Assembly (NCBI GenBank): GCA_964369045.1
Contig: CAYJDY010000001.1
Location: 1 to 63,499 of the forward strand
Direction of reading: 5' to 3'
Length of the DNA stretch: 63,499 bases
DNA from: an uncultured Candidatus Saccharibacteria bacterium
GTDB lineage: Bacteria; Patescibacteriota; Saccharimonadia; Saccharimonadales; AWTP1-31
The position numbers and the translations under genes are program-made. Under the pieces are notes generated by a model. The model saw only the letters and a program-made list of their open reading frames with translations, was not told where the DNA came from and did no database searches. This document shows positions 5,291 through 63,333 of the stretch, piece after piece (within the stretch, counting starts at the first letter, position 1; each line of letters starts with the position of its first letter).

Positions 5291-7165
5291 ATGAAAAAAC
5301 GTATGGACAAAAAATCTTTCAAATCGAGTCAGAAACCAGGTGGAGCAAAACGGTCAGGAATGAAGAACGCTGGTTTTATAGCCTTGCTAATCTTGTTCGG
5401 ACTCGTAATATTTACGGCAGTTGGCCAACAAGATCCCAAGCTAAAAAACGTACCTTTCTCGGAAGTTATCACCAGGGCAAACAGCGGCGAGATTAAGCAG
5501 ATCACCATTAAAGGCACCAGCCTGGAGGTGGTACCCAAGGGTGAAGACAAAGCTACCGAGAAGTCGAATAAAGAAGCTGGAAGTAGCATTTACGAACAGG
5601 GACTCAAGAACCGTGATGTGATTGTCGATGTCAAACCCGAATCTGGCGGTAGTAGTTTTTGGCTCAGCCTGGCCAGCGGTGTCATTCCAGTGATTCTTAT
5701 AAGTGCCGTATTATTCTTTATGCTTCGTAGTGCACAGGGTCAGGGCAATCAGGCTATGAGCTTTGGCAAGAGCAAGGCGCGTTTGTACGGTAACGAAAAA
5801 GACAAAGCAACCTTCAAAGATATTGCCGGTAGCGAAGAAGCCAAAATTGATCTGCAAGAAGTTGTTGAATTCCTAAAGTATCCAAAGAAGTTCGAATCAG
5901 TTGGCGCCAAAATTCCAAAAGGTGTTCTGCTCGTTGGCCCTCCCGGAACAGGTAAAACTATGTTGGCACGCGCAGTCGCTGGTGAAGCTAACGCACCATT
6001 CTTTAGTATCTCTGGTTCTGAATTCGTCGAAATGTTCGTTGGTGTCGGTGCCTCACGTGTTCGTGATTTATTTGCCAAGGCCAAGAAGAACGCGCCATGT
6101 ATTATCTTCATCGATGAAATTGATGCCGTTGGACGTAAGCGCGGTAGTGGTATGGGTGGTGGTCATGACGAGCGTGAACAAACGCTCAATCAGATTCTTG
6201 TCGAGATGGATGGTTTCGAACAGGGGACTAACGTTATTGTTCTTGCCGCAACCAACCGCTCCGATGTACTAGATTCTGCGTTGCAACGTCCAGGCCGATT
6301 TGACCGTCGCGTCAACATTGACCTGCCAGATCGCAAAGATCGCGAAGCGATTCTAAAAGTTCACTTTGCCAAAAAGCCACTCGCTAAGGGCGTGGATCTC
6401 GATGCTTTGGCAGCCAAGTCTGCCGGATCATCTGGCGCGGATCTCGCAAACATTGCTAATGAATCTGCCATTATTGCTGCTCGAAATAGTCGAAAAGAGA
6501 TTATTCAAGACGATGTCACTCAGGCGTTCGAAAAGGTCGCCATCGGTCCTGAGCGTAAGAGCAAGATCATGAGCGAGAAAGAAAAAGAAATAACTGCATA
6601 TCATGAAGCGGGGCACGCAATTGTCGGACACGTACTGCCAGAGAGTGACATGGTTCATAAGGTTACCATTATTCCACGTGGTGGAACGGGCGGTGTTACC
6701 TGGTTCATTCCACCAGAGGATAAGAGTTATCACTCTATTCTCGAATTCAAAGACATTCTGGCACGAATGCTTGGTGGTCGTATTGCCGAAGAAGTAATTT
6801 ACGGACGCGATCGTGTTACGACGGGTGCTGGAAATGACCTGCAAAAAGCAGCAGAGCTTGCTCGAGATATGGTGATCAATCAGGGAATGGGTACAAAGTT
6901 GCGTGACCAAGTTTTTCATGTTGACGAAGGAATGATGATGGAACGAATGGTTCACGAAAAACAATACAGCGACGAAACAGCCAAAGTTATTGATGATGAA
7001 GTAGAGAACCTGATTACCGAAGCCGCAAAGCGAGCCCGAGAGGTCATCAAAGCTAATCGTGATAAGTTGGAAGATCTCAAAGACCGGCTTATTAAAAAAG
7101 AAACTGTCGAAGCCGAAGAAGTCCTGGAAGTCCTTAAGGGCTCTAAACTCCCCGCAAACATTTAA
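5291..7165 (+). CDS. ftsH: ATP-dependent zinc metalloprotease FtsH
   Basis: Walker A GPPGTGKT, Walker B IIFIDEID, second region of homology, Zn motif HEAGHA, and N-terminal TM segments. Confidence 0.97.
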
Positions 7166-7311
7166 CAAAAATTCTTGTTAGTAACTTACTGTCGTTTACC
7201 TCGTAAGAGCCACGATGTTTTGCCCATGATTGTCCACAGTTATAGTCAAAATAGATGCAATATTGCTATTGTACTGGATACCTATCGTAGGACTGCTTAT
7301 AATGAAGGTGA

Positions 7312-8913
7312 ATGAATCGAATACTCCGAAAAGCTAACAGGCGATTATCGCTTGGCAATACGGCGGCGTTGCTTGTCACAACTTCGCTCATTGGCCAAGT
7401 ACTTGGTTTTTTGCGCGTAAAGCTGATCAACGCCAACTTCTCCGCGCTCGGCCCAAATAGTACCGATGCTTTTTTTGCAGCGTCAAAAATCCCGGATTTC
7501 TTTTACTTTACTATCGCAGCCGGTGCTCTAGGCGTGGCGTTTATGCCAGTGCTCGCAGACCACCTTCAGAAGCATGACCGTAAGGGTGTCTGGGAGCTAT
7601 CAACCAGCTTACTTAACTTCTTGGCACTTATTATGTTTGTTGTAGGGCTTGGGATTTTTATCTTTGCTGAGCCGATCATACATGGACTCGTTGCTCCGAA
7701 TCTAGAACCAAAACAGCTCAGTAACGCCGTGATCATCATGCGTTTGATTGCGTTTAATCCGTTGCTTTTCACGATTTCTGGAATATTGATGAGCGTGCAG
7801 CAGACCTTTGGTCGGTTCTTTTATTTTGCTGTAGCTCCGCTAATCTACAACACATCAATTATTCTGAGCATCTTCCTATTCCGAGACAATATTGGTTTGA
7901 TTGGACTCGGAGTGGGCGCCTTGATTGGCGCTTTATTGCAACTTGGAATTGCCACAATAGGACTACGGGGTATTCAGTTTAAATACCATAGGTTGATTAA
8001 CTTTAAAGCTCCTGACTTTCAGAAGATTCTGCGACTGGTACCACCCCGTTCGATTGATCAAGGTATCACGTCGATCAACAGTATCGTGGCAACTAACTTT
8101 GCTCGGCGTCTTGGTACTGGTAACGTCAGTTTTTATGAAAACGCCTATACTCTTCATACGGCACCGACACTACTGATAGGTACATCTATTTCTACAGCCA
8201 TTTTCCCGAAACTAAACAACCTGGTGGCACGCGGTAATATGACAGCATTCAGACAAGAATTCCTAAAAGTGCTGAGGATTATTATCTGGGTTTCTGTACC
8301 GGTTGTAGTGGTATGTTTCTTTGGCCGTGGATACTTAGCACGTATGATCTTTAGCCGTAACGCACCAGAGATTGCTGCAATATTTGGCTTCTTAACAGCT
8401 GCAATATTTTTCCGAACGGTATACACTATCGTCTCACGTTACTTCTACGCACAGAAAGACACTTGGACGCCACTTATTGACACTCTCTTTGCATTCGTAC
8501 TATTTATATACTTAGTATCGGTCTTTTCGAAGCCAACAAGTTACGGAATCACAGGCATCGCCCTAGCTGAGTCTACGGTAGCCGGTCTGCAATTGTTGAT
8601 ACTCACTACCATCATGGTTATTCGTGATCATAAACTGATTGATAAAAAATTCCTTGGAGGTATTGGTAAGATAATATCGGTAACTGGATTTAGCGTCGTC
8701 GCTGCATATATCATGGTTAGCCTATTCCCACTCGGAAGCAACGACACAGGCTTCATCACACTAACCGCCAAGATGAGTCTAATTGCTGGCGTGACATTTG
8801 CAGTCTACCTCTTCTTCTCCTCACTGTTCAGCTTGGAGGAGGCCGTGCCTGTGTTTAGAAAAATGCGCTCTATTTGGCGCACTATATTGCGTCCCGTTAA
8901 GGTTGAGACCTAA
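7312..8913 (+). CDS. murJ: Lipid II flippase MurJ/MviN
   Basis: 533 aa with about 14 TM helices. N-terminus SLIGQVLGFLRVKLINANF is typical of MurJ. Confidence 0.8.
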   Translation: MNRILRKANRRLSLGNTAALLVTTSLIGQVLGFLRVKLINANFSALGPNSTDAFFAASKIPDFFYFTIAAGALGVAFMPVLADHLQKHDRKGVWELSTSLLNFLALIMFVVGLGIFIFAEPIIHGLVAPNLEPKQLSNAVIIMRLIAFNPLLFTISGILMSVQQTFGRFFYFAVAPLIYNTSIILSIFLFRDNIGLIGLGVGALIGALLQLGIATIGLRGIQFKYHRLINFKAPDFQKILRLVPPRSIDQGITSINSIVATNFARRLGTGNVSFYENAYTLHTAPTLLIGTSISTAIFPKLNNLVARGNMTAFRQEFLKVLRIIIWVSVPVVVVCFFGRGYLARMIFSRNAPEIAAIFGFLTAAIFFRTVYTIVSRYFYAQKDTWTPLIDTLFAFVLFIYLVSVFSKPTSYGITGIALAESTVAGLQLLILTTIMVIRDHKLIDKKFLGGIGKIISVTGFSVVAAYIMVSLFPLGSNDTGFITLTAKMSLIAGVTFAVYLFFSSLFSLEEAVPVFRKMRSIWRTILRPVKVET

Positions 8914-10697
8914 TCACGCTTCAGCATTACGGTAAATGCTTCGGCAGGGATATCGACTTTTCCAAAGCGCTTCATACGCTTTTTCCCTTTGGCTTGTTTT
9001 GCTAGCACTTTCTTTTTTCGTGAAACATCACCACCGTAAAGTCCAGTAGTCACATCTTTTCGATAGGCAGATATATCTTCGCGGGCAATGAACTTGCCAC
9101 CGATTCCAGCCTGCAGGGCAACCTGGAAGTTTTGCCTTGGTATAACTTCTTTGAGCTTGCCGACAATCTCACGCCCGAGTCGCTGAGATTCACTACGGTG
9201 AACCATGACGCTGAGCGCTTCTACTGGTTCACCAGCAACATAAAAATCGACCTTCACGAGGTCTTCCGCTCGGTAATCATCGAGTTCGTAATTGAAGCTA
9301 CCATAGCCACTCGTCACGCTCTTTAGTTGGTCATAAAAATCTGTTAAAAGGTTAGCGAGTGGGGCTTCGAATGATACGAGTGCGAGCTGAGCGTCTACGT
9401 AGCTGAGGTTCTTCTGGATACCCCGCTTGCCCGATATCAATTGGATCACGGCACCTACGTAGTCTTTTGGCACCACAACCTCGCCCTTAATCCAAGGTTC
9501 ACGTACCTCTACGATCTGAGAAGGATCGGGCAGGTCGCTGGCACTTTTGATAGTTACTTCATCGCCATTATTGAGTGTAAGCTGATAGTCGGTCGAGGGG
9601 TTGGTAATGACCAGGTCGAGGTCGTACTCTCTCTCCAGTCGCTCACGTACGATGTCCATGTGCAGTAGGCCCAAGAACCCGATTCGCACACCAAACCCAA
9701 GGACAGAAGAGTTTTCTGGCGTAAACTGCAGTGCTGAGTCGCTGAGAGAAAGTTTTTCGATGGCATCTTTTAGTAGTTGATAATTTTCATTGCTGTCGGG
9801 GAAGAAGCCTGCGTATACAAATGGTTTTACATCTTTATAGCCTGGTAGTGATTCTTTTGCTGGATCAGCAACCAATGTTACCGTATCGCCAACTTTCGCC
9901 TCACGAGTACTCCGGAGGTTGGTCACGATATAGCCGATCTCGCCAGTCTTCATCTGTGGGGCAGGAGAGAGAGTAGGGGATAGCGACCCAACTTCGAGTG
10001 CCAATCCATTAGCACTGGTCGCCATCATTCGGATTTCATCACCCTTCTTTATGGCGCCGTCTACAATACGAACGTAGAGAACAACCCCTCGGTAGTCATC
10101 ATAATAGCTGTCAAAGATTAGGGCACGAGCAGACTGAGCCTTGTCGTCTCCGCCAGTTGGTTCAGGGATGTCACGCACAATGCGGTCTAGTACTGCGTCA
10201 ACACCTTGCCCGGTCTTGGCGCTGATATGCAAGATGTCTTCTTTCTTGCAACCGAGCAATGCGATGACTTCAGCACTAACTTTATCGACATCTGCAGCAG
10301 GTAAGTCGATTTTGTTTAGAACTGGGATGATAGCTAAATCGGCCGCCATAGCTAGGTATACATTGGCGAGCGTTTGGGCCTGAATGCCCTGGCTTGCATC
10401 AACAACTAATATGGCGCCTTCACATGCCTCTAAGCTACGTGAAACTTCATAGCTGAAGTCAACATGTCCGGGCGTATCAATAAGGTTGAGCTCGTAGTCC
10501 TGATAGCGCATGCGTACAGGGGCTAGCTTGATAGTGATCCCTCGTTCACGTTCCAAATCCATCTTATCGAGTAATTGAGACTTCATGTCACGTTTTTGTA
10601 CGGTACCAGTGATTTCCAATAGTCGATCGGCCAGGGTACTTTTACCATGGTCAATGTGCGCAATAATACAGAAGTTTCGAATATGAGCCTGATTCAC
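8910..10697 (-). CDS. lepA: Elongation factor 4 (LepA)
   Basis: IRNFCIIAHIDHGKSTLADRLL G1 motif, DTPGHVDF, NKID, and the LepA C-terminal domain. GTG start preceded by GAGGA 9 nt upstream. Confidence 0.96.
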   Translation of the reverse strand: MNQAHIRNFCIIAHIDHGKSTLADRLLEITGTVQKRDMKSQLLDKMDLERERGITIKLAPVRMRYQDYELNLIDTPGHVDFSYEVSRSLEACEGAILVVDASQGIQAQTLANVYLAMAADLAIIPVLNKIDLPAADVDKVSAEVIALLGCKKEDILHISAKTGQGVDAVLDRIVRDIPEPTGGDDKAQSARALIFDSYYDDYRGVVLYVRIVDGAIKKGDEIRMMATSANGLALEVGSLSPTLSPAPQMKTGEIGYIVTNLRSTREAKVGDTVTLVADPAKESLPGYKDVKPFVYAGFFPDSNENYQLLKDAIEKLSLSDSALQFTPENSSVLGFGVRIGFLGLLHMDIVRERLEREYDLDLVITNPSTDYQLTLNNGDEVTIKSASDLPDPSQIVEVREPWIKGEVVVPKDYVGAVIQLISGKRGIQKNLSYVDAQLALVSFEAPLANLLTDFYDQLKSVTSGYGSFNYELDDYRAEDLVKVDFYVAGEPVEALSVMVHRSESQRLGREIVGKLKEVIPRQNFQVALQAGIGGKFIAREDISAYRKDVTTGLYGGDVSRKKKVLAKQAKGKKRMKRFGKVDIPAEAFTVMLKRD

Positions 10698-56137: not shown

Positions 56138-57715
56138 ATGAAGAAAAATAGTCGTAATCTATTTTGGGACAAACGAAAGTCACGAATACTCGTTGTAGTT
56201 TTGGTTGCAGTTGTTGGCGTGGTGTTGTTGTCTGTCTCCCGAGCAGCTACGCCGTCAGCTTCGATTGAATCAGAATCTGGAACCATTAGTAGTTGCGCAA
56301 AAACTGTCCCCAGTTCAGATGCATCCAATGGGCAGTCGGTGAAGTTTGGATGTACTACTGGAGCTGAAGCTTTCGTACACCCCGGAATACTAGTTAGTAA
56401 AGCTCAGCTTGACTTTGTAAAAGCAAAAATTAAAGCGGGCCAGCAACCCTGGCTTGGTGCGTATCAGGCTATGTCTGGCAATAGGCTTGCCAGTAAAACG
56501 TATACACCGCATCCAGTTCCGGAAGTTAAGTGTTCGACTGGAGCCTATATAACAACCTTCGCCTCAACACAGGCTGGTTGTCCAGCTATGCGAGATGATT
56601 CTTCTGCGGTGTATACACAGGCGCTTATGTGGTACTTTTCCGACGATCCAGTGTACGCGCAAAATGCTGTTAAAATAATAAATGCGTGGACTTCTGTTCA
56701 TACCAAGACTTGGTTTGAACAACCAAGAGTAGTTAATGGTGCAATCGTATACGGTAATCCGGGAGACAACACGACGACGTGCTCGGGTGGTGGATGCCCT
56801 CAAGCATATGGCAGTGGACTACTCGATACTGCCTGGAGTACCGAGACAATGACACGGGGCTTGGAGATTATCCGCTACACGTATAGTGGCTGGAATACAT
56901 CCGACATCGCAAAGGCGGAAAACTACTTTAAGACAGTTGCTATGGATGCACTTGGATCAGGCTGGACCAGGACGACCAACTGGGAAACGAGCGTCGCCGA
57001 AGCCTGGACAAACATTGGTATATTCACTAATGATAGGGCAATCTACGATAAAGGCCTGGCCTACTGGCGGCAAGAAGTTCCCCGATATATTTATGTGACA
57101 TCTGATGGTGCTTTGCCGCTGACACCGTTCAAGAGCGTGACATGGCTGACAGGATCCAATGGCCTCAAATACTATGTCACTGCGCCCAAGACAGTTGATG
57201 CTAAGACTCTCAAGGAGAGTGGCTGGTATAACGCCAACAGCTACATCAGTGGCCTTAGTAATGAAACCTGTCGCGACATTGGGCATACAATGATGGGCTT
57301 TGGCGCAATGATTAACTCTGCAGAAAGTGCACGAATCCAGGGGGATGATCTCTATGGTGAGCAGAAAGATCGTATCGTGACTGCCTATGAACTGCATGCT
57401 CAGTACACCAACATACTTGCTGATCGTCTGGTTGCTGCCGGCAAGCCACTTACCAACGATACAAATCTCGGTAATAACATAAGTGCTGTTGCTGTCAGCG
57501 GTGGGGCGCCCACGGGAGTTCCGTGGGTGTGCCCTAGCTTTAATGGCGGTGGCGGTAGTGCTTTTGCAGGGTTTGAACTCGCTTATAACCACTATGCCAA
57601 CAGAAAGGCAATTGCAATGCCCAACACCAAGAAAGCTGCAGAGCGACTCCGTAATCCGCCTATTGGCAATGCTCTCTTCTGGGAGACGCTAACACACGCC
57701 AACAACCCCAATTAA
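56138..57715 (+). CDS. Secreted polysaccharide lyase, alginate-lyase-like (alpha/alpha toroid)
   Basis: Signal-anchor and SRAATPSASIESESGT module shared with the GH16 at 1..990. HPGILVSKAQLDFVKAKIKAGQQPW is typical of the alginate-lyase family N-terminus. Confidence 0.5.
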   Translation: MKKNSRNLFWDKRKSRILVVVLVAVVGVVLLSVSRAATPSASIESESGTISSCAKTVPSSDASNGQSVKFGCTTGAEAFVHPGILVSKAQLDFVKAKIKAGQQPWLGAYQAMSGNRLASKTYTPHPVPEVKCSTGAYITTFASTQAGCPAMRDDSSAVYTQALMWYFSDDPVYAQNAVKIINAWTSVHTKTWFEQPRVVNGAIVYGNPGDNTTTCSGGGCPQAYGSGLLDTAWSTETMTRGLEIIRYTYSGWNTSDIAKAENYFKTVAMDALGSGWTRTTNWETSVAEAWTNIGIFTNDRAIYDKGLAYWRQEVPRYIYVTSDGALPLTPFKSVTWLTGSNGLKYYVTAPKTVDAKTLKESGWYNANSYISGLSNETCRDIGHTMMGFGAMINSAESARIQGDDLYGEQKDRIVTAYELHAQYTNILADRLVAAGKPLTNDTNLGNNISAVAVSGGAPTGVPWVCPSFNGGGGSAFAGFELAYNHYANRKAIAMPNTKKAAERLRNPPIGNALFWETLTHANNPN

Positions 57716-57730
57716 CGCAAGAGTAAATAC

Positions 57731-57964
57731 TTAAATTTTCATGAACTGCAGTAAGTAATAGACTAAGAAAGCCAGCCAAAAGATGGCTTTAATAAACGCC
57801 ATTACAACGAGTTTGAATGTTCCAGAATGAAAATGTAGGTAGTACACTAGTGTGCCTACAAATCCCAGAAACCAAACACCACCAGCACCACCATGATTAC
57901 CGATACTCTGATAATTTGTCTTATCTTTTTTCACGCTGTTCCCTTCCTTATTCTTTTTTATCAT
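57731..57964 (-). CDS. Hypothetical small membrane protein (2 TM)
   Basis: 77-aa ORF with a basic N-terminus and two hydrophobic helices. Confidence 0.45.
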   Translation of the reverse strand: MIKKNKEGNSVKKDKTNYQSIGNHGGAGGVWFLGFVGTLVYYLHFHSGTFKLVVMAFIKAIFWLAFLVYYLLQFMKI

Positions 57965-58008
57965 ACTCCTGCGCGCAATAAATAAACAGGACTTGGTATA
58001 CTAGGGTC

Positions 58009-58350
58009 ATGAATGAAATAGATGAATATTTAGACAAAATTGAACAACCACAAAAGGGTGAACTACAGAGGATTCGCAAGCTAATACAAGGTGTTGTGCC
58101 TGACGCAACTGAAGGTATAAGCTACGGCATGCCAGGATTTAAGTACAAGGGTAAGTACCTGATTACGTACTCTGCATTCAAAGATCATATGAGCCTGTTT
58201 CCTGGAGCTGAAGCAATTGCCGAGCTTGGTAATAAGCTGGATGGTTACAAAACGTCTAAGGGAACTGTCCAGTTTACAATAGAGCACCCTCTTTCTGATG
58301 CAACAGTGCATGAGATGATCCAACTTCGAGTAGCGGCGATAGACAAATAA
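58009..58350 (+). CDS. DUF1801 (YdhG-like) domain protein
   Basis: EGISYGMPGFKYKGKYL...FKDHMSLFP pattern. Confidence 0.6.
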   Translation: MNEIDEYLDKIEQPQKGELQRIRKLIQGVVPDATEGISYGMPGFKYKGKYLITYSAFKDHMSLFPGAEAIAELGNKLDGYKTSKGTVQFTIEHPLSDATVHEMIQLRVAAIDK

Positions 58351-58385
58351 TCATTGCTCGTCCTTACTGCTTACGGTAATCTATA

Positions 58386-59789
58386 GTGAGGAAACATAAC
58401 TCATTGAATGATGCAGATTATATAGACATTTGGCTCGAACGATACGGCGGGTGGTCGCTGATTATTCTTTTTAGTGCCATACCTGTGTTTGCATTGATGC
58501 TAAGCGGTGGGTTCTGGACAAATACTGGCTCTTGGTACGGCATTGCATCGAGCCTCGGAAAAATGGCAGGACTTGTCGGGTTTGTTCTGTATGCGATTAA
58601 CATGGTCCTCAGCATTAGGCGTCACTGGCTAGAGCGATTTTTTAACGGATTAAACCGCGTTTATATTGCACACCATCTAACAGGAGGAATCGCTCTAATT
58701 CTGTTAGCTATACATCCTGTGTTACTGGCTGTACGTTATATAGAACCGAGCGCAATGTCTACACTCAGGTTGGCCGCCTTGGCATTATTGCCAAGAGCCA
58801 TAACTCTTAACGAAAATTTTCAAGTTGTTCAACAACAAGTAGCAATAAATTTTGGCTTTATTGCGTTTACTGGCATGGTAGTTCTGCTCATCTTGACGTT
58901 TTTCATTAAGCTCCCGTACCGCGTTTGGTTATTCACTCATAAATTCTTGGGACCTGCTTTTTTCTTTGCAGCCCTACACGTGCTATTTATTAGTTCTGAT
59001 GTCGACCGCATGCCACTGCTAAAGCTGTATATGCTGTTCTGGGCGGTCGTAGGTCTAGGGGCATTCACCTATCGAACGCTATTTGGTAGTATTTTTGTCC
59101 GTCGATACCCATTTCAGGTGACTAAGGTTGCGCTGTTGCCAAAGGGTGTCGTCTCGATTGACCTCAAAGCAGTTGAAGATCGAATGCCGTTTCAGGCTGG
59201 GCAGTTTGTATTTGTAAGATTCCTCTGGCAAAAACATCATGGAATCTTGCCGGAGGTACATCCGTTTTCCATTGCTTCAAGTCCATCGGAAGGCGTAGTT
59301 CGTGTCGTCGTAAAAGCACTGGGAGATCATACCAAATCGCTACTCACTCTCCCTGTTGGTACCGTTGCCGAGGTGGAGGGAGCATTCGGTAAATTTAACT
59401 ACCAGCGGTTTGCAAATGCTGATCAAATTTGGGTTGCGGGCGGTATCGGAATAACGCCCTTCCTAAGCATGGCAGCTACACTCGACAAAACTTCACCGCC
59501 AATCTCTTTGTTTTACAGCGTTGTTAGTAAAGATGAACTCATTGGTGACAAGGTCTTTGCCGGTATAAACCCTGCCAAAGTTGATTCGTTTAAGTATATT
59601 CCATTTATTACAGACGAAACCAAGAAGTTCATCGACGCTAATTTCCTAGAAGAAAAATCAGGAAATCTAAAGGGTAAAGAAATTTTCTTATGTGGCCCAC
59701 CGCCCATGATGAAAGCCCTACGTAAACAGCTCAGAGCTAAGGGGGTGAAGTCGATCAATATTCATTCAGAGGAATTTACAATGTCATGA
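58386..59789 (+). CDS. NOX/FRE-type ferric reductase: bis-heme TM domain fused to FAD/NAD(P)H dehydrogenase
   Basis: His pairs HHLTGGIALILLAIH and HKFLGPAFFFAALH (H-x13-H / H-x12-H). FAD motif HPFSIAS. NAD(P)H motifs GGIGITP and LCGPPPM. Confidence 0.8.
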   Translation: MRKHNSLNDADYIDIWLERYGGWSLIILFSAIPVFALMLSGGFWTNTGSWYGIASSLGKMAGLVGFVLYAINMVLSIRRHWLERFFNGLNRVYIAHHLTGGIALILLAIHPVLLAVRYIEPSAMSTLRLAALALLPRAITLNENFQVVQQQVAINFGFIAFTGMVVLLILTFFIKLPYRVWLFTHKFLGPAFFFAALHVLFISSDVDRMPLLKLYMLFWAVVGLGAFTYRTLFGSIFVRRYPFQVTKVALLPKGVVSIDLKAVEDRMPFQAGQFVFVRFLWQKHHGILPEVHPFSIASSPSEGVVRVVVKALGDHTKSLLTLPVGTVAEVEGAFGKFNYQRFANADQIWVAGGIGITPFLSMAATLDKTSPPISLFYSVVSKDELIGDKVFAGINPAKVDSFKYIPFITDETKKFIDANFLEEKSGNLKGKEIFLCGPPPMMKALRKQLRAKGVKSINIHSEEFTMS

Positions 59790-60676
59790 ACAAAATTCTA
59801 AAATATCTAACACTAAAGAATACAGTTGCCGTTACGCTTATCTCTTGTGGGGTACTGACCGTACTAATCTTATTTACTGGTCTGGTTTTTGGAAGCAAGA
59901 CACTAGATAAGATCGGCAACGAATCGTCTATCCAAACTGGCAGTGAATCCAATTCAGACTCGTCTGGACTGCAGTCTAGCGATGTTACAAGTACTGGTGC
60001 TTCAAGTCAAGGATCACAGACAAACGATACTGGATCGTCAGCATCTAATAGTACAGGAGGTGGAACGAGTAGCAATAAATCCGCAACAGGAAGTAGTAAC
60101 AGTGGCGCAACAAATAGCACAGGAACAAAAACAGGCACAACCTCAGGCGGTGGATCAACAACCGCAACGGCCACGATTAGCAATTTTTCTGCATCTCCCT
60201 CGTCGATAAGCTACAACAGTGCATCGACATTATCATGGACTTCAGCTAACGCAACATCATGCAGTATTTCCACGCTTGGTGCAGTTGCCACCAGTGGTAC
60301 CAAATCCACCGGTAACCTTACCAGTACAAAGACGTTTACGCTTACTTGCGGAACCGCAACAAAACAAGTAACCGTAACGGTAGGCAATGCTCCTGTTGCT
60401 TGTGGGCAGTCTGGTGGAACGTGCACGAATGCACAAGTTGCCGCACACGCGAGTCAGAGTGACTGCTGGATGATCTATAACGGCTACTACTATATTGTTA
60501 CAGCGTATGTAAACAATCATCCAGGCGGTAAAGGGGTGTTTAACTCATCATCCTGTGGGCACGATATTACGAGCTATATGAATGGCTCGGCCAGCACGGG
60601 TGGTAGACAACATTCGCATGGCTCGAGTGCATACAGTGTACTTAACAGTTACAGAGTGGGACAGGTACAAGGATAA
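59786..60676 (+). CDS. Membrane-anchored exported protein with Ser/Thr/Gly-rich linker, Ig-like module and C-terminal cytochrome b5-like heme domain
   Basis: DCWMIYNGYYYIVTAYVNNHPGG...GHDITSYM...HSHGSSAY matches the Cyt-b5 domain with both His ligands. Start overlaps the reductase stop (ATGA). Confidence 0.7.
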   Translation: MNKILKYLTLKNTVAVTLISCGVLTVLILFTGLVFGSKTLDKIGNESSIQTGSESNSDSSGLQSSDVTSTGASSQGSQTNDTGSSASNSTGGGTSSNKSATGSSNSGATNSTGTKTGTTSGGGSTTATATISNFSASPSSISYNSASTLSWTSANATSCSISTLGAVATSGTKSTGNLTSTKTFTLTCGTATKQVTVTVGNAPVACGQSGGTCTNAQVAAHASQSDCWMIYNGYYYIVTAYVNNHPGGKGVFNSSSCGHDITSYMNGSASTGGRQHSHGSSAYSVLNSYRVGQVQG

Positions 60677-61233
60677 TGGAAACAAACGAAAAACATAAAA
60701 AACATCGTATTCGTCGACCTATTGCGGCAAAACACAAAGAACCGATTGCAGCAGTCAGTGGTGGTATTCTACTGGTAGTGTTGTTAATCATATTCGGGCT
60801 TGGGGTATTTATGATCAGGGACTATATCAATTATGATGAAGATCAAGTTAGCAAAGTTAGCCAATCTCAGACAAACGCACCAGCGACAAAAATACCTCCA
60901 CTCGTAGCAATAATTAGTTCTGTTTCGTATAGCGATGGTGACCCTGCGTTTCAGCCGATGCCGGGCCAACATTATGCTATTGTCGATGTCGATGTCGTAC
61001 ATAATCTGGATGCACCAACGTGGTTATCACCACTTCTTCAGTCATTTATTGTGGACGCTGCAGGAAAAAAATATGAGCTATCACCAATTACGTTGGAGCA
61101 ACCTTTTGATGCTCGTGAATATAAGATCGGCGAGCACGCAACAGGTGAACTTAGTTACATGATTCCCGAAAATGTTAATGGTCTAAACTGGTGCTACGAG
61201 ATCAAAACATTAAAAGTGTGTAAGCCACTATAA
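60676..61233 (+). CDS. Membrane-anchored extracytoplasmic protein, DUF4352-like
   Basis: N-terminal TM helix. HYAIVDVDVVHNL...FIVDAAGKKYE resembles DUF4352. Start overlaps the previous stop by 1 nt. Confidence 0.4.
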   Translation: METNEKHKKHRIRRPIAAKHKEPIAAVSGGILLVVLLIIFGLGVFMIRDYINYDEDQVSKVSQSQTNAPATKIPPLVAIISSVSYSDGDPAFQPMPGQHYAIVDVDVVHNLDAPTWLSPLLQSFIVDAAGKKYELSPITLEQPFDAREYKIGEHATGELSYMIPENVNGLNWCYEIKTLKVCKPL

Positions 61234-61236
61234 GTT

Positions 61237-61614
61237 ATGGCTAAGAACAAAAAGCATTTACGTAGACATCGATGGTTTATATTTAAAGAGTTTGTTCTCG
61301 GTGCTCTGGCGCTATTAAGCATAGGGCTGGTATTATTTGAGTTTTTTTCCAATCCATCTCCTCAGATGCTGAAGAGCCTCAACCATATTGATATCGTAAT
61401 TGCTTGTATATTTTTGGCCGATTTTTGCCTAAGTCTTATTCTCACTCATGATAGACGGAAGTACCTACGTCATAACTGGTACTTCATTTTTGCCGCTATT
61501 CCTCTTTCTGATTCGATTGCAGAAGCTTTGCGAGGAATTCGAGTATTACGCCTCGTACGCCTTATCAGGGCGGGTGAGCATCTGGATTACAGCGCGACTA
61601 TTAAAAAACGCTAA
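61237..61614 (+). CDS. Voltage-sensor-domain-only protein (S1-S4 of the Ion_trans family, no pore domain)
   Basis: Four helices. S2 is IACIFLADFCLSLIL. S4 is LRGIRVLRLVRLIRAG, with 5 Arg at every third position. The ORF ends 15 aa after S4 and the next gene is on the other strand. Confidence 0.65.
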   Translation: MAKNKKHLRRHRWFIFKEFVLGALALLSIGLVLFEFFSNPSPQMLKSLNHIDIVIACIFLADFCLSLILTHDRRKYLRHNWYFIFAAIPLSDSIAEALRGIRVLRLVRLIRAGEHLDYSATIKKR

Positions 61615-61618
61615 AAGC

Positions 61619-62401
61619 TCAGGTCAACCGCACACTTAATCCCAAGCCCTTGAAATCCTGGCAGACAAATACTGGTTCCGATAGCGTACTGAGCGATGTA
61701 TCGTAGCTGTATCCGAGGTCATTAAAGCCTGCCAAACTTTTCGTGTCTTGTACCTGATTCTGGATAAGCCAGCGGGCAAGCGCCCCTCGGGCAATCTTGG
61801 CATGCACGACAACGAAAGTTGGCTCTTTTGTTTTTGGATTCATGGTCAAGAAACGCGGACTAATAACTCGGCTTGGATCAACGTAGTCTGTTACAACCTT
61901 GGAATACTCTACTGAACTGAGGTTCATAATGGTCCCACTTGCAGGGAGTTGTTTGACTATATCATCACCCCAGAACTGGTAGAGACTCGTGGTTGTAAAA
62001 CCAGAGAGCCGGTAGGCCATTTCGAGTCGATATGGGCGAATGCCATCGAGTGGTCTGATTAGGCCATAAAGCCCAGATAGAATAATAAGCGTTTTGTCGG
62101 CATACTGCCGATCATTTGCAGAAAAAGATCCAACTTGCAGTCCGCTGTAGATATCTCCTAAGAAGGTGTCAATTGCAGTCACCTGTTCTGATGGTCTAGT
62201 ATTCCAATTCGCAATAGTACGAGTCGTTTTTACCGCCAAATCTGGTTTGATTTTCATGATCTTTGCAATCTGTTTATCGTCGAGCGACTTGAGATAGCCT
62301 GCAAGAATCTCGGCCTTAGGTAGTAGTAAAGGCTGATGGCTAGGCTTACTGTGATGCGCGGTGGTACGCATGGTTTTCGAAGAGTGCAGTAGAATGATCA
62401 C
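61619..62401 (-). CDS. yaaA: Peroxide stress protein YaaA (DUF328/UPF0246)
   Basis: GTG start gives (M)IILLHSSKTM, matching the YaaA N-terminus MLI.ISPAKT. GDIYSGL and RPYRLEM blocks. The listed ORF extends to 62431. Confidence 0.75.
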   Translation of the reverse strand: MIILLHSSKTMRTTAHHSKPSHQPLLLPKAEILAGYLKSLDDKQIAKIMKIKPDLAVKTTRTIANWNTRPSEQVTAIDTFLGDIYSGLQVGSFSANDRQYADKTLIILSGLYGLIRPLDGIRPYRLEMAYRLSGFTTTSLYQFWGDDIVKQLPASGTIMNLSSVEYSKVVTDYVDPSRVISPRFLTMNPKTKEPTFVVVHAKIARGALARWLIQNQVQDTKSLAGFNDLGYSYDTSLSTLSEPVFVCQDFKGLGLSVRLT

Positions 62402-62424
62402 CTCACTAGTATAGCAATACTTGC

Positions 62425-63333
62425 ATGGCACAAATCGGCTATACTGTTTACATGGTAGACTTTAGTTCGATCACAATTTTGTATAATCCAAAGAGCACTG
62501 GGCCGAGTGAAAAAAATGCTAAGCGTTTTCAGCGCAGGCTGGCACGGACTCGCTACAAAGAGCATACGACTATTGTGCCAACTCGTCATGCTGGGCATGC
62601 AGAAGAACTAGCGCAGGATATTGCAAATCGAGGTGCCCGTCCACTAATCATCTCTTCGAGTGGCGATGGAGGCTATAACGAAGTGATCAACGGGGTATTA
62701 AATGCAAAAGGAGCTGACAGTGCTGTAACAGGTCTACTTCCATCGGGTAATGCCAACGACCATTACAAGCAAATGCACAAGCCTTACGTTATTCGGCAAA
62801 TCCTCCAGGCTAAAGCTCAGAATATTGACACACTAAAACTAACTGCCAGTGTGGATGGCAAGCCTTGGCATCGCTATGCACATTCGTATATTGGCTTTGG
62901 GCTTACTTCTGACATCGGTCAGGCACTGAATGATGCAGACCTCAATTCTAAGAACGAGGCCGTGATATTTATGAAGACGTTAATCAAGGTAAAACCCTTC
63001 TCAGTAGTTATGAAAGGTGAAATTAGTGAGTTCAGTAACATCATACTTAGTAATGTCGGTAAGATGTCCAAAATCTTTTCGTTGTCCAAGACAGCGCGTG
63101 TTGATGATGGTAAGTTCGAAGTGTTTACCACCGATCAGAACAGGGCAAAACTGATTCGTGAAATGCTAAAATCAGCAACTGTCGGGGTGCCTCACGAGGA
63201 GAGAACAGACAAATTCACCTTTCGCACCATCAAGCCTCTACATGTTCAGTTAGATGGTGAGGTGTTCGATATTGATGGTGATTGCAAGGTTACGGTCACT
63301 GTTGCACATCGCGCACTCCAGTGCATCATCTGA
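62425..63333 (+). CDS. Diacylglycerol/lipid kinase family protein (DagK/YegS-like)
   Basis: ILYNPKS, SSSGDGGYNEVINGV (GDGT-type motif) and PSGNANDH. Start may be 62452. Confidence 0.7.
   Translation: MAQIGYTVYMVDFSSITILYNPKSTGPSEKNAKRFQRRLARTRYKEHTTIVPTRHAGHAEELAQDIANRGARPLIISSSGDGGYNEVINGVLNAKGADSAVTGLLPSGNANDHYKQMHKPYVIRQILQAKAQNIDTLKLTASVDGKPWHRYAHSYIGFGLTSDIGQALNDADLNSKNEAVIFMKTLIKVKPFSVVMKGEISEFSNIILSNVGKMSKIFSLSKTARVDDGKFEVFTTDQNRAKLIREMLKSATVGVPHEERTDKFTFRTIKPLHVQLDGEVFDIDGDCKVTVTVAHRALQCII

Follow-up and report, generated by a model that had tools for sequence, protein, structure and literature searches.

The window analysed here, a contig of 63,499 nucleotides (nt) from an uncultured Candidatus Saccharibacteria bacterium (CAYJDY010000001.1, assembly GCA_964369045.1), contains an operon whose last gene encodes a voltage-sensor domain (VSD) protein lacking a pore. 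Judging from sequence comparisons and structure models, this protein is a bona fide pore-less VSD, derived from the sensors of KvAP-like potassium channels. The three genes that precede it encode a NADPH oxidase (NOX)-type flavocytochrome, a membrane-anchored cytochrome b5 protein (b5) and a protein of family DUF4352. By its distribution, the NOX-b5 pair is an old and widespread module of Candidate Phyla Radiation (CPR) bacteria and DPANN archaea, and not a new one; the VSD, by its neighborhoods, is a late, clade-restricted and dispensable addition to this ancient module, persisting in other genomes with no NOX beside it. Both the family of prokaryotic pore-less VSDs and its operon link to NOX appear undescribed so far. 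The picture of the operon as a whole, an electron-export chain equipped with an accessory voltage sensor, is one for which we consider the chances to be about even.

Four co-directional open reading frames (ORFs) on the + strand occupy positions 58386-61614: the first and second overlap by 4 nt, the second and third by 1 nt, and 3 nt separate the third from the fourth. These are exactly the coordinates given in an earlier reading of the window by eye and ORF list (the first-pass annotation). The gene content proposed there (NOX, exported b5, DUF4352-like and VSD proteins) is borne out as well, each protein being matched by Pfam above the curated cut-offs.

58386..59789, + strand: SpNOX-type NAD(P)H oxidoreductase, 467 amino acids (aa); Pfam Ferric_reduct, FAD_binding_8, NAD_binding_1
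59786..60676, + strand: membrane-anchored extracytoplasmic cytochrome b5 protein, 296 aa, b5 domain at nt 60425-60667; Pfam Cyt-b5
60676..61233, + strand: DUF4352 protein, 185 aa; Pfam DUF4352
61237..61614, + strand: pore-less S1-S4 voltage-sensor (VSD) protein, 125 aa, TAA stop at 61612-61614; Pfam Ion_trans
61619..62431, - strand: YaaA-family (peroxide-stress) gene, a neighbor outside the operon; Pfam H2O2_YaaD, 1.1e-61

A stand-alone voltage-sensor family

The Ion_trans match of the VSD protein (6.8e-10) is limited to profile positions 6-110 of 241, that is, to S1-S4. The protein ends 14 residues past S4 and has no S5-P-S6, which sets it apart from six-transmembrane (6-TM) voltage-gated K+ channels. 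It does possess the features by which members of the VSD superfamily are recognized: an arginine at every third position of S4 (R99, R102, R105, R108 and R111; nt 61522-61581 including a C-terminal AGEH tail), a phenylalanine and an acid in S2 (F59 and D62, the charge-transfer-center residues) and an outer acidic cluster. Twenty-six close homologues were found, 122-144 aa in length and 42-90% identical, the named ones originating from Saccharibacteria or Patescibacteria; named homologues assign the window to Candidatus Saccharibacteria (CPR/Patescibacteria). Invariant among them are E18, S28, F59, D62, N80, W81, P89, R102, R108, R111 and A112-G113-E114-H115, and the elements needed for voltage sensing (the five S4 arginines, F59, D62, D52 and E18) are conserved. 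The first-pass annotation had described a voltage sensor with no pore while allowing that the gene might be a truncated remnant of a full channel. The lengths of the homologues and their invariant residues, C-terminal AGEH included, indicate a selected full-length gene rather than a truncated channel; thus, the description stands as that of a conserved stand-alone protein and the pseudogene alternative is ruled out. Moreover, only 4 nt separate the VSD stop codon from the end of the convergent YaaA gene, leaving no space for a pore domain or exon on the 3' side.

A split channel with its pore encoded by a nearby gene was also considered and rejected. The window and 108 further loci (L numbers below) were searched for a pore-only partner using a K+-signature regular expression and a hidden Markov model (HMM) trained on the S5-P-S6 region of full-length relatives; none was found, the sole pore-module match being to one full-length channel (L105). 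A partner encoded elsewhere in the genome is possible.

The relatives of the VSD extend well beyond this close circle. When a profile of the family was run against 1.84 billion representative proteins, 1,471 matches were obtained at E <= 1e-3. The best 150 comprise about 100 short proteins (100-170 aa) and, interleaved with these, about 50 full-length 6-TM K+ channels (200-275 aa), for example P0167 with its TSVGYGD filter. In the short VSD-only family the AGEH tail stands where the channels have their S4-S5 linker, and the S3 acid has largely been lost: at position 83 the channels carry E or D, and the short proteins L, F or N. The third S4 arginine (window position 105) is replaced by Gly or Ser in about 20% of the short family and by Glu in a few members (P0147-P0295); it is kept in the NOX-linked VSDs, and 48 of 50 full-length channel relatives keep it too. 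By sequence, the closest solved structure is the voltage sensor of KvAP (1ORS, E = 5e-10), followed by bacterial Nav channels. Two AlphaFold (AF2) models of the VSD, with predicted local distance difference test (pLDDT) scores of 68.5 and 73.5, predict S1, S2 and S4 as long helices; S3 is broken and of lower confidence, and the whole fits a VSD of four segments. The best Foldseek matches of both models are again KvAP (2KYH/1ORS), then the sensors of KCNQ, Kv4 and Nav channels.

A literature search yielded no description of prokaryotic VSD-only proteins. According to two reviews (PMC10377628, PMC13095418), Hv channels are not found in bacteria or archaea, and one of the two states that prokaryotic voltage sensors always come attached to a pore domain. 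Contrary to the latter statement, the window VSD and its short relatives, which make up roughly 100 of the best 150 representative clusters, show that pore-less sensors do exist in prokaryotes.

The NOX-b5-DUF4352 module

The NOX protein matches Pfam Ferric_reduct (8.5e-13) together with FAD_binding_8 and NAD_binding_1, an architecture in which a six-TM bis-heme ferric-reductase domain is fused to a FAD/NAD(P)H dehydrogenase domain. Across 19 aligned NOX homologues the bis-heme ligands H96-x13-H110 and H185-x12-H198 are invariant, as are HPFS 292-295 (HPFSI 292-296), GGIGITP 352-358 (GIGITP 353-358) and CGPP 436-439. This set comprises all the motifs to which the first-pass annotation had drawn attention (bis-heme histidine pairs, HPFS, GxGxxP/CGP) and also those used as filters to define bacterial NOX proteins by Hajjar et al. 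(2017; PMC5676040), namely, two His-x12-14-His pairs in two TM helices, HPFSI and GIGITP. The closest solved relative is SpNOX (8QQ7/8QTA; E = 6e-46 for a profile compared with PDB, TM and dehydrogenase regions covered). In NCBIfam, the NOX protein gave only generic FNR-type matches, all far below cut-off, and no specific family was found for b5, DUF4352 or VSD. The true start of the NOX gene is most likely TTG 58404 (461 aa, MNDADY...) and not GTG 58386: the TTG start is shared with NOX homologues and with gene call P0027, and a Shine-Dalgarno-like GAGGAAA lies upstream at 58388-58394.

The b5 protein consists of a basic N-terminus, one TM anchor, a long Ser/Thr/Gly-rich linker, a middle region and a C-terminal b5 domain (Pfam Cyt-b5 at aa 214-294, 5.9e-12); between linker and heme domain, the middle region matched no Pfam family. 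Both axial histidines, the HPGG histidine and the second one (HS) that the first-pass annotation had also singled out, are at least 90% conserved among 38 homologues, and so are two cysteines. The conserved histidine pair and cysteines fit an extracytoplasmic, disulfide-stabilized, bis-His electron carrier. In PDB, the b5 domain matches flavocytochrome b2 and, over the full domain, the bacterial periplasmic cytochrome b558 (1CXY, E = 1.6e-8). By these features the protein is a classical bis-His cytochrome b5 of the electron-transfer type, with heme binding predicted. The DUF4352 protein (Pfam 1.2e-06) starts with a basic tail, followed by one TM anchor and a beta-rich domain on the extracytoplasmic side. 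A redox site in it was considered and rejected: no His, Cys or Met is conserved among the homologues, in which only structural residues of the Pro/Gly type are kept, and no sequence relative was found in PDB. The protein is treated as structural; it is probably an accessory or scaffold subunit.

To survey the module, the best 80 NOX loci were taken from a scan of GTDB species representatives with the NOX alignment, their ORFs were searched with custom HMMs and the neighborhoods were read from flanks of up to 10 kb. In about 40 of the 80 loci the gene immediately after NOX encodes b5, and often its start overlaps the NOX stop codon. These NOX-b5 loci belong to Saccharibacteria, to many other CPR phyla, to DPANN archaea and to one Acidimicrobiales metagenome-assembled genome (MAG); those outside the CPR are L036 from Pacearchaeota (8001-9673), L069 from Woesearchaeota (64-1469) and L054, the Acidimicrobiales MAG (7782-10054). 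In the Saccharibacteria loci L013, L015-L022, L024 and L028 a DUF4352 gene comes next after b5. Some NOX-b5-DUF4352 operons continue with a second DUF4352 gene, a gene for a surface protein of about 820 aa with PKD/beta-propeller features and a third DUF4352 gene, an extension that the window operon does not have. The large protein (L018 8033-11516, L020 10706-14272, L021 3156-6298, L028 4698-7807, L013 11022-14210) gives weak PKD, beta-propeller or SBBP matches, and a b5 HMM match in L018 and L020 and not in L013, L021 or L028. The extended Saccharibacteria operons suggest a larger extracellular assembly.

Association of the two redox genes has been reported before. In the passages of a preprint cited here (bioRxiv 10.1101/2021.11.17.468889), 185 of 1,427 CPR genomes with PF01794 also had PF00173 within 10 kb, the linkage (pFre-cytb5) is described as confined to CPR bacteria and as having an unknown function, and its authors propose an unknown CPR-specific membrane complex.

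Linkage of the voltage sensor to the module

The complete order NOX-b5-DUF4352-VSD, with junctions of 1-3 nt, is found in the window and in L001/L002, L009, L011/L012 and L013, and partially in L094 and L096. Relative to the window proteins, the linked VSDs are 66% (L001/L002), 67% (L009) and 53% (L011/L012) identical, the lowest value being about 52%, and the linked NOX proteins are down to 64% identical (L013). In L013 the cassette is flanked by polysaccharide-synthesis genes and an Lnt gene, and in L011 the upstream genes differ from those of the window; that the cassette is intact under such different flanks indicates conservation beyond local synteny. NOX-b5-DUF4352 is also the only recurrent neighbor found for any VSD-only gene. 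Within the sample, the VSD follows the module only in a subclade of Saccharibacteria in which NOX shares 64% identity or more with the window NOX, and one member of this subclade has no VSD.

A number of observations weigh against a functional tie between the sensor and the module. Among the 80 species-representative NOX loci the VSD follows the module in one (L013) and is missing from 79, including every locus whose NOX is 55% or less identical to the window NOX. In L106, which has the order SmpB-NOX-b5-DUF4352 and a NOX 64% identical, the approximately 200 nt after DUF4352 hold no VSD. Conversely, VSDs that are 50-57% identical to the window protein stand alone, with no NOX nearby: after a GDSL lipase gene in L004/L005/L095, after SmpB-NUDIX in L006-L008/L093 and after an acetyltransferase gene in L010. 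More distant VSD-only genes have mixed neighbors (SHOCT/DUF6325, histidine kinase, DoxX, MOSC, competence protein). Linked and unlinked VSDs interleave in a neighbor-joining tree, for which no support values were computed, and the AGEH tail, being equally conserved in unlinked VSDs, is not specific to NOX. The AF2 model, finally, is of moderate confidence (pLDDT 73.5, with S3-S4 below 70). Since most modules are devoid of a VSD and close VSD homologues occur alone elsewhere, the NOX-VSD pairing is clade-restricted and not obligatory. A comparison of L006 (5953-7372, SmpB-NUDIX-VSD) with L106 (393-3733, SmpB-NOX-b5-DUF4352, no VSD), whose SmpB proteins are 67-70% identical, suggests that the two are complementary remnants of one ancestral locus, shaped by differential loss.

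The first-pass annotation had made conservation of the gene neighborhood in relatives a check on its proposal, which was that of a prokaryotic NOX/VSD pairing not described before. On the first count, the four-gene cassette is kept in relatives despite differing flanks (L011, L013), and the VSD is lacking in L106 and in 79 of the 80 NOX loci. On the second, the apparent novelty lies in the VSD family and in its operon link; the NOX-b5 pair was already known and the pairing with a VSD is not general.

As to the surroundings of the operon, a promoter/terminator scan of positions 57600-62600 gave counts at chance level. The YaaA gene occupies the same position in L001 (6050-6832), L002 (3690-4091) and L009 (7494-8276) and is not beside the cassette in L013; the juxtaposition of a peroxide-stress gene and a NOX-type enzyme may or may not be meaningful. 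In L009 a gene of the Na+/Ca2+-exchanger family (6500-7471, + strand; PF01699, 6e-64) lies between VSD and YaaA, 80 nt past the VSD stop. Elsewhere in the window, two exported proteins (37-990 and 56138-57715, both + strand), one of them alginate-lyase-like, share a near-identical N-terminal motif, RAATP(G/S)ASIE(A/S)ESGT, directly past the TM/signal segment; it could serve as a sorting or processing signal peculiar to the lineage, or a domain common to both proteins could begin there. A 77-aa ORF (57731-57964, - strand) encoding a small Gly-rich membrane protein with no Pfam match sits upstream of the operon, between the alginate-lyase-like gene and a DUF1801 gene.

Proposed mechanism, alternatives and known systems

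The NOX protein carries every cofactor motif for a path on which electrons from cytoplasmic NAD(P)H pass FAD and then two stacked b hemes before reaching the outer face of the membrane. The b5 gene is translationally coupled to it, and the b5 domain is tethered outside the cell by a TM anchor and a flexible linker. In the cryo-EM study of SpNOX (PMC11564096), the enzyme was found to reduce cytochrome c directly, and faster than O2 or Fe(III); the authors question O2 as the physiological acceptor and argue that the exposed outer heme delivers electrons to an unidentified protein. On this ground b5 is a natural candidate acceptor, which would take electrons from the outer heme of NOX. The path from NAD(P)H to an external b5 heme had been put forward in the first-pass annotation; the motifs, the adjacency of NOX and b5 in about half of the sampled loci and the likeness to SpNOX all speak for it, and we regard it as probable. 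From b5, single electrons might be handed to O2, to Fe(III) or to a redox partner on the host surface, so that electron export could provide a sink for NAD(P)H in an organism with no respiratory chain. Such a flow would be electrogenic and depolarizing, with H+ left inside. On the favored reading the VSD, having joined the older module in one Saccharibacteria subclade only, would report or limit this depolarization, and its likely means would be contact of the AGEH tail or of the TM surface with the NOX complex or with another membrane protein; it would not be a proton-selective channel of the Hv1 type. That the VSD is functionally coupled to electron export in any way is a tentative proposal, to which we give somewhat less than an even chance. 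A more specific version, in which a KvAP-derived AGEH-tail sensor was recruited into the NOX-b5 operon as a voltage-controlled partner, gating electron flow or giving a charge or proton shunt and thereby constituting a NOX/voltage-sensor partnership that arose in prokaryotes independently of the NOX2-Hv1 pair of animals, is unlikely.

Parts of this scheme can be read differently. The b5 protein might not be the acceptor at all: NOX would then be a superoxide generator or a ferric/flavin reductase, and b5 and DUF4352 would be used otherwise, for instance, in heme scavenging by a heme-auxotrophic symbiont. SpNOX does reduce O2 and, weakly, Fe(III) in vitro (PMC11564096), the Pfam label of the b5 domain is heme/steroid-binding, a YaaA peroxide-stress gene adjoins in four loci and roughly half of the sampled NOX homologues have no adjacent b5. 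Yet both axial histidines are kept, as in electron-transfer b5 proteins, NOX and b5 are adjacent across bacterial and archaeal phyla, and the preference of SpNOX for cytochrome c argues in the opposite direction, making this alternative a rather poor candidate. A better case, although still a doubtful one, can be made for a VSD that is independent of the redox module, either a general sensor of membrane potential or the sensing half of a split channel or transporter that has its other half encoded elsewhere, left at the end of the operon by inherited gene order. Stand-alone homologues occur in unrelated contexts, L006 and L106 look like products of a differential loss in which each part survived with the other gone from its side, the AGEH hallmark does not distinguish linked from unlinked members, the VSD-only family in its wider sense is large and has no recurrent neighbor, and in L009 a Na/Ca-exchanger gene comes after the VSD. 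Against this, DUF4352 and VSD are joined by 1-3-nt junctions in five lineages, which points to co-translation, the cassette is intact where both flanks change (L013, L011), NOX-b5-DUF4352 is the one neighbor that does recur for a member of the VSD-only family, and, save for the full-length channel in L105, neither a pore-module homologue nor a K+-selectivity signature was found in the window or the loci.

The first-pass annotation had favored an analogy with Hv1, the pore-less, proton-conducting sensor that compensates charge for NOX2, and had advised looking for an Hv1-like selectivity aspartate in the VSD. Under this hypothesis the VSD would be a functional Hv1 analogue in a prokaryote, forming a voltage-gated proton or ion pathway that is opened by the depolarization and acidification that NOX drives and that compensates the charge. 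On a general biophysical estimate, a few hundred uncompensated charges would shift the potential of a small CPR cell by about 100 mV. Hv1 is a VSD-only protein as well, and the operon linkage with an electrogenic NOX homologue has been kept in at least five lineages across different flanks. The human Hv1 query segment, checked to be identical to PDB 5OQK, was compared with the VSD family profile by hhalign. In the resulting register R105/R108/R111 fall on R205/R208/R211 and E114 on N214, with non-basic A-G-E past the last S4 arginine, and two further arginines lie upstream in the VSD; substitutions by Gly or Ser such as those seen at the third arginine in the wider VSD-only family open gating-pore (omega) currents in other VSDs (PMC13095418). 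However, the hhalign probability is 20%, and the same register places the invariant Ser28 on the selectivity residue Asp112, a position at which 111 of 126 family members have Ser and 4 have Asp, and Val107 on Trp207. A passage of PMC4429351 states that proton selectivity of Hv1 requires the S1 aspartate, and the S4 tryptophan is totally conserved in Hv1 (PMC10377628). The S4 segment of the VSD, LRGIRVLRLVRLIRAGEH, has five arginines versus three in Hv1 and no Trp, and with Phe or Leu in place of the S3 acid the crevice should gain hydrophobicity rather than hydration. Neither the best 60 PDB sequence matches nor the best 50 Foldseek matches of either VSD model include an Hv1 entry, and KvAP leads every list. 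Thus, the VSD family fails every Hv1 criterion open to this comparison, and its membership in the Hv1 family is ruled out. As for an analogue by function, the NOX-linked members retain R105, the majority of NOX-b5 modules have no VSD linked to them, and, under an inward proton-motive force, an open proton path lacking the delta-pH gating of Hv1 would uncouple the cell. Hv1-like conduction by the VSD, and with it the analogue as a whole, is improbable.

If the sensor does modulate or compensate electron export, the operon would offer a simple bacterial system for the voltage coupling of trans-membrane electron transfer; if it does not, the family still represents a new, minimal and naturally isolated VSD suited to biophysics. 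For a prokaryotic pore-less VSD, linkage to NOX-b5-DUF4352 is the first genomic hint of function that recurs. The operon-encoded b5 is a concrete candidate for the role of "missing" protein acceptor in bacterial NOX enzymes, and the arrangement suggests how respiration-less CPR symbionts may discard reducing equivalents across the membrane.

Among known systems, KvAP and the prokaryotic 6-TM Kv channels have the VSD closest to that of the window by sequence and fold, with the same S4 periodicity, the same F-x-x-D center in S2 and the same N-W/P motif in S3. Unlike them, the window protein has no S4-S5 linker, S5, P-loop or S6, ending in the invariant AGEH instead, and has lost the S3 acid at the position of KvAP E93. 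At the Hv1 selectivity position TMEM266 (HVRP1) also has Ser, not Asp. TMEM266 and the VSD of voltage-sensing phosphatases resemble the window protein in being sensors that do not gate a covalently attached pore, TMEM266 being described in a passage of PMC6392501 as a functional voltage sensor with no associated pore domain; both are eukaryotic and have long cytoplasmic domains, and no sequence relationship to the window VSD closer than the generic VSD level was found. The likeness to Hv1 and NOX2 lies in the genetic association of a pore-less S1-S4 protein of the same topology with an electrogenic NOX-type enzyme, and in the absence, as in Hv1/VSOP, of any basic residue past the last S4 arginine. 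The window VSD differs from Hv1 in having five S4 arginines and a hydrophobic residue at the S3 acidic position and in lacking the S1 Asp, the S4 Trp and the coiled coil; Hv1 is not detectably closer to it than any other VSD, and the link to NOX is here an operon rather than co-expression in phagocytes.

On the redox side, the CPR pFre-cytochrome b5 clusters have the same linkage of a PF01794 ferric reductase with a PF00173 b5. The cited passages of that preprint center on a tyrosine-ligated MAPR-like b5 (cytb5MY) associated with two-component systems and mention neither DUF4352 nor a voltage sensor, whereas the window b5 is bis-His and the adjacency extends to DPANN archaea and an Acidimicrobiales MAG. 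In MsrPQ (heme-b membrane protein YedZ/MsrQ with MsrP), discussed in PMC11564096, a member of the FRD superfamily likewise passes electrons across the membrane to a dedicated extracytoplasmic partner, but MsrQ has no fused dehydrogenase domain and receives its electrons from quinol or Fre, and the partner MsrP is a periplasmic molybdoenzyme, not a b5 cytochrome. SpNOX is a single chain in which a six-TM bis-heme domain is joined to a FAD/NAD(P)H dehydrogenase, as is the window NOX, which has all the Hajjar filter motifs and is about 60 residues longer. The window enzyme shares its operon with an extracellular b5 dedicated to it, a DUF4352 protein and a VSD; no partner of this kind is known for SpNOX.

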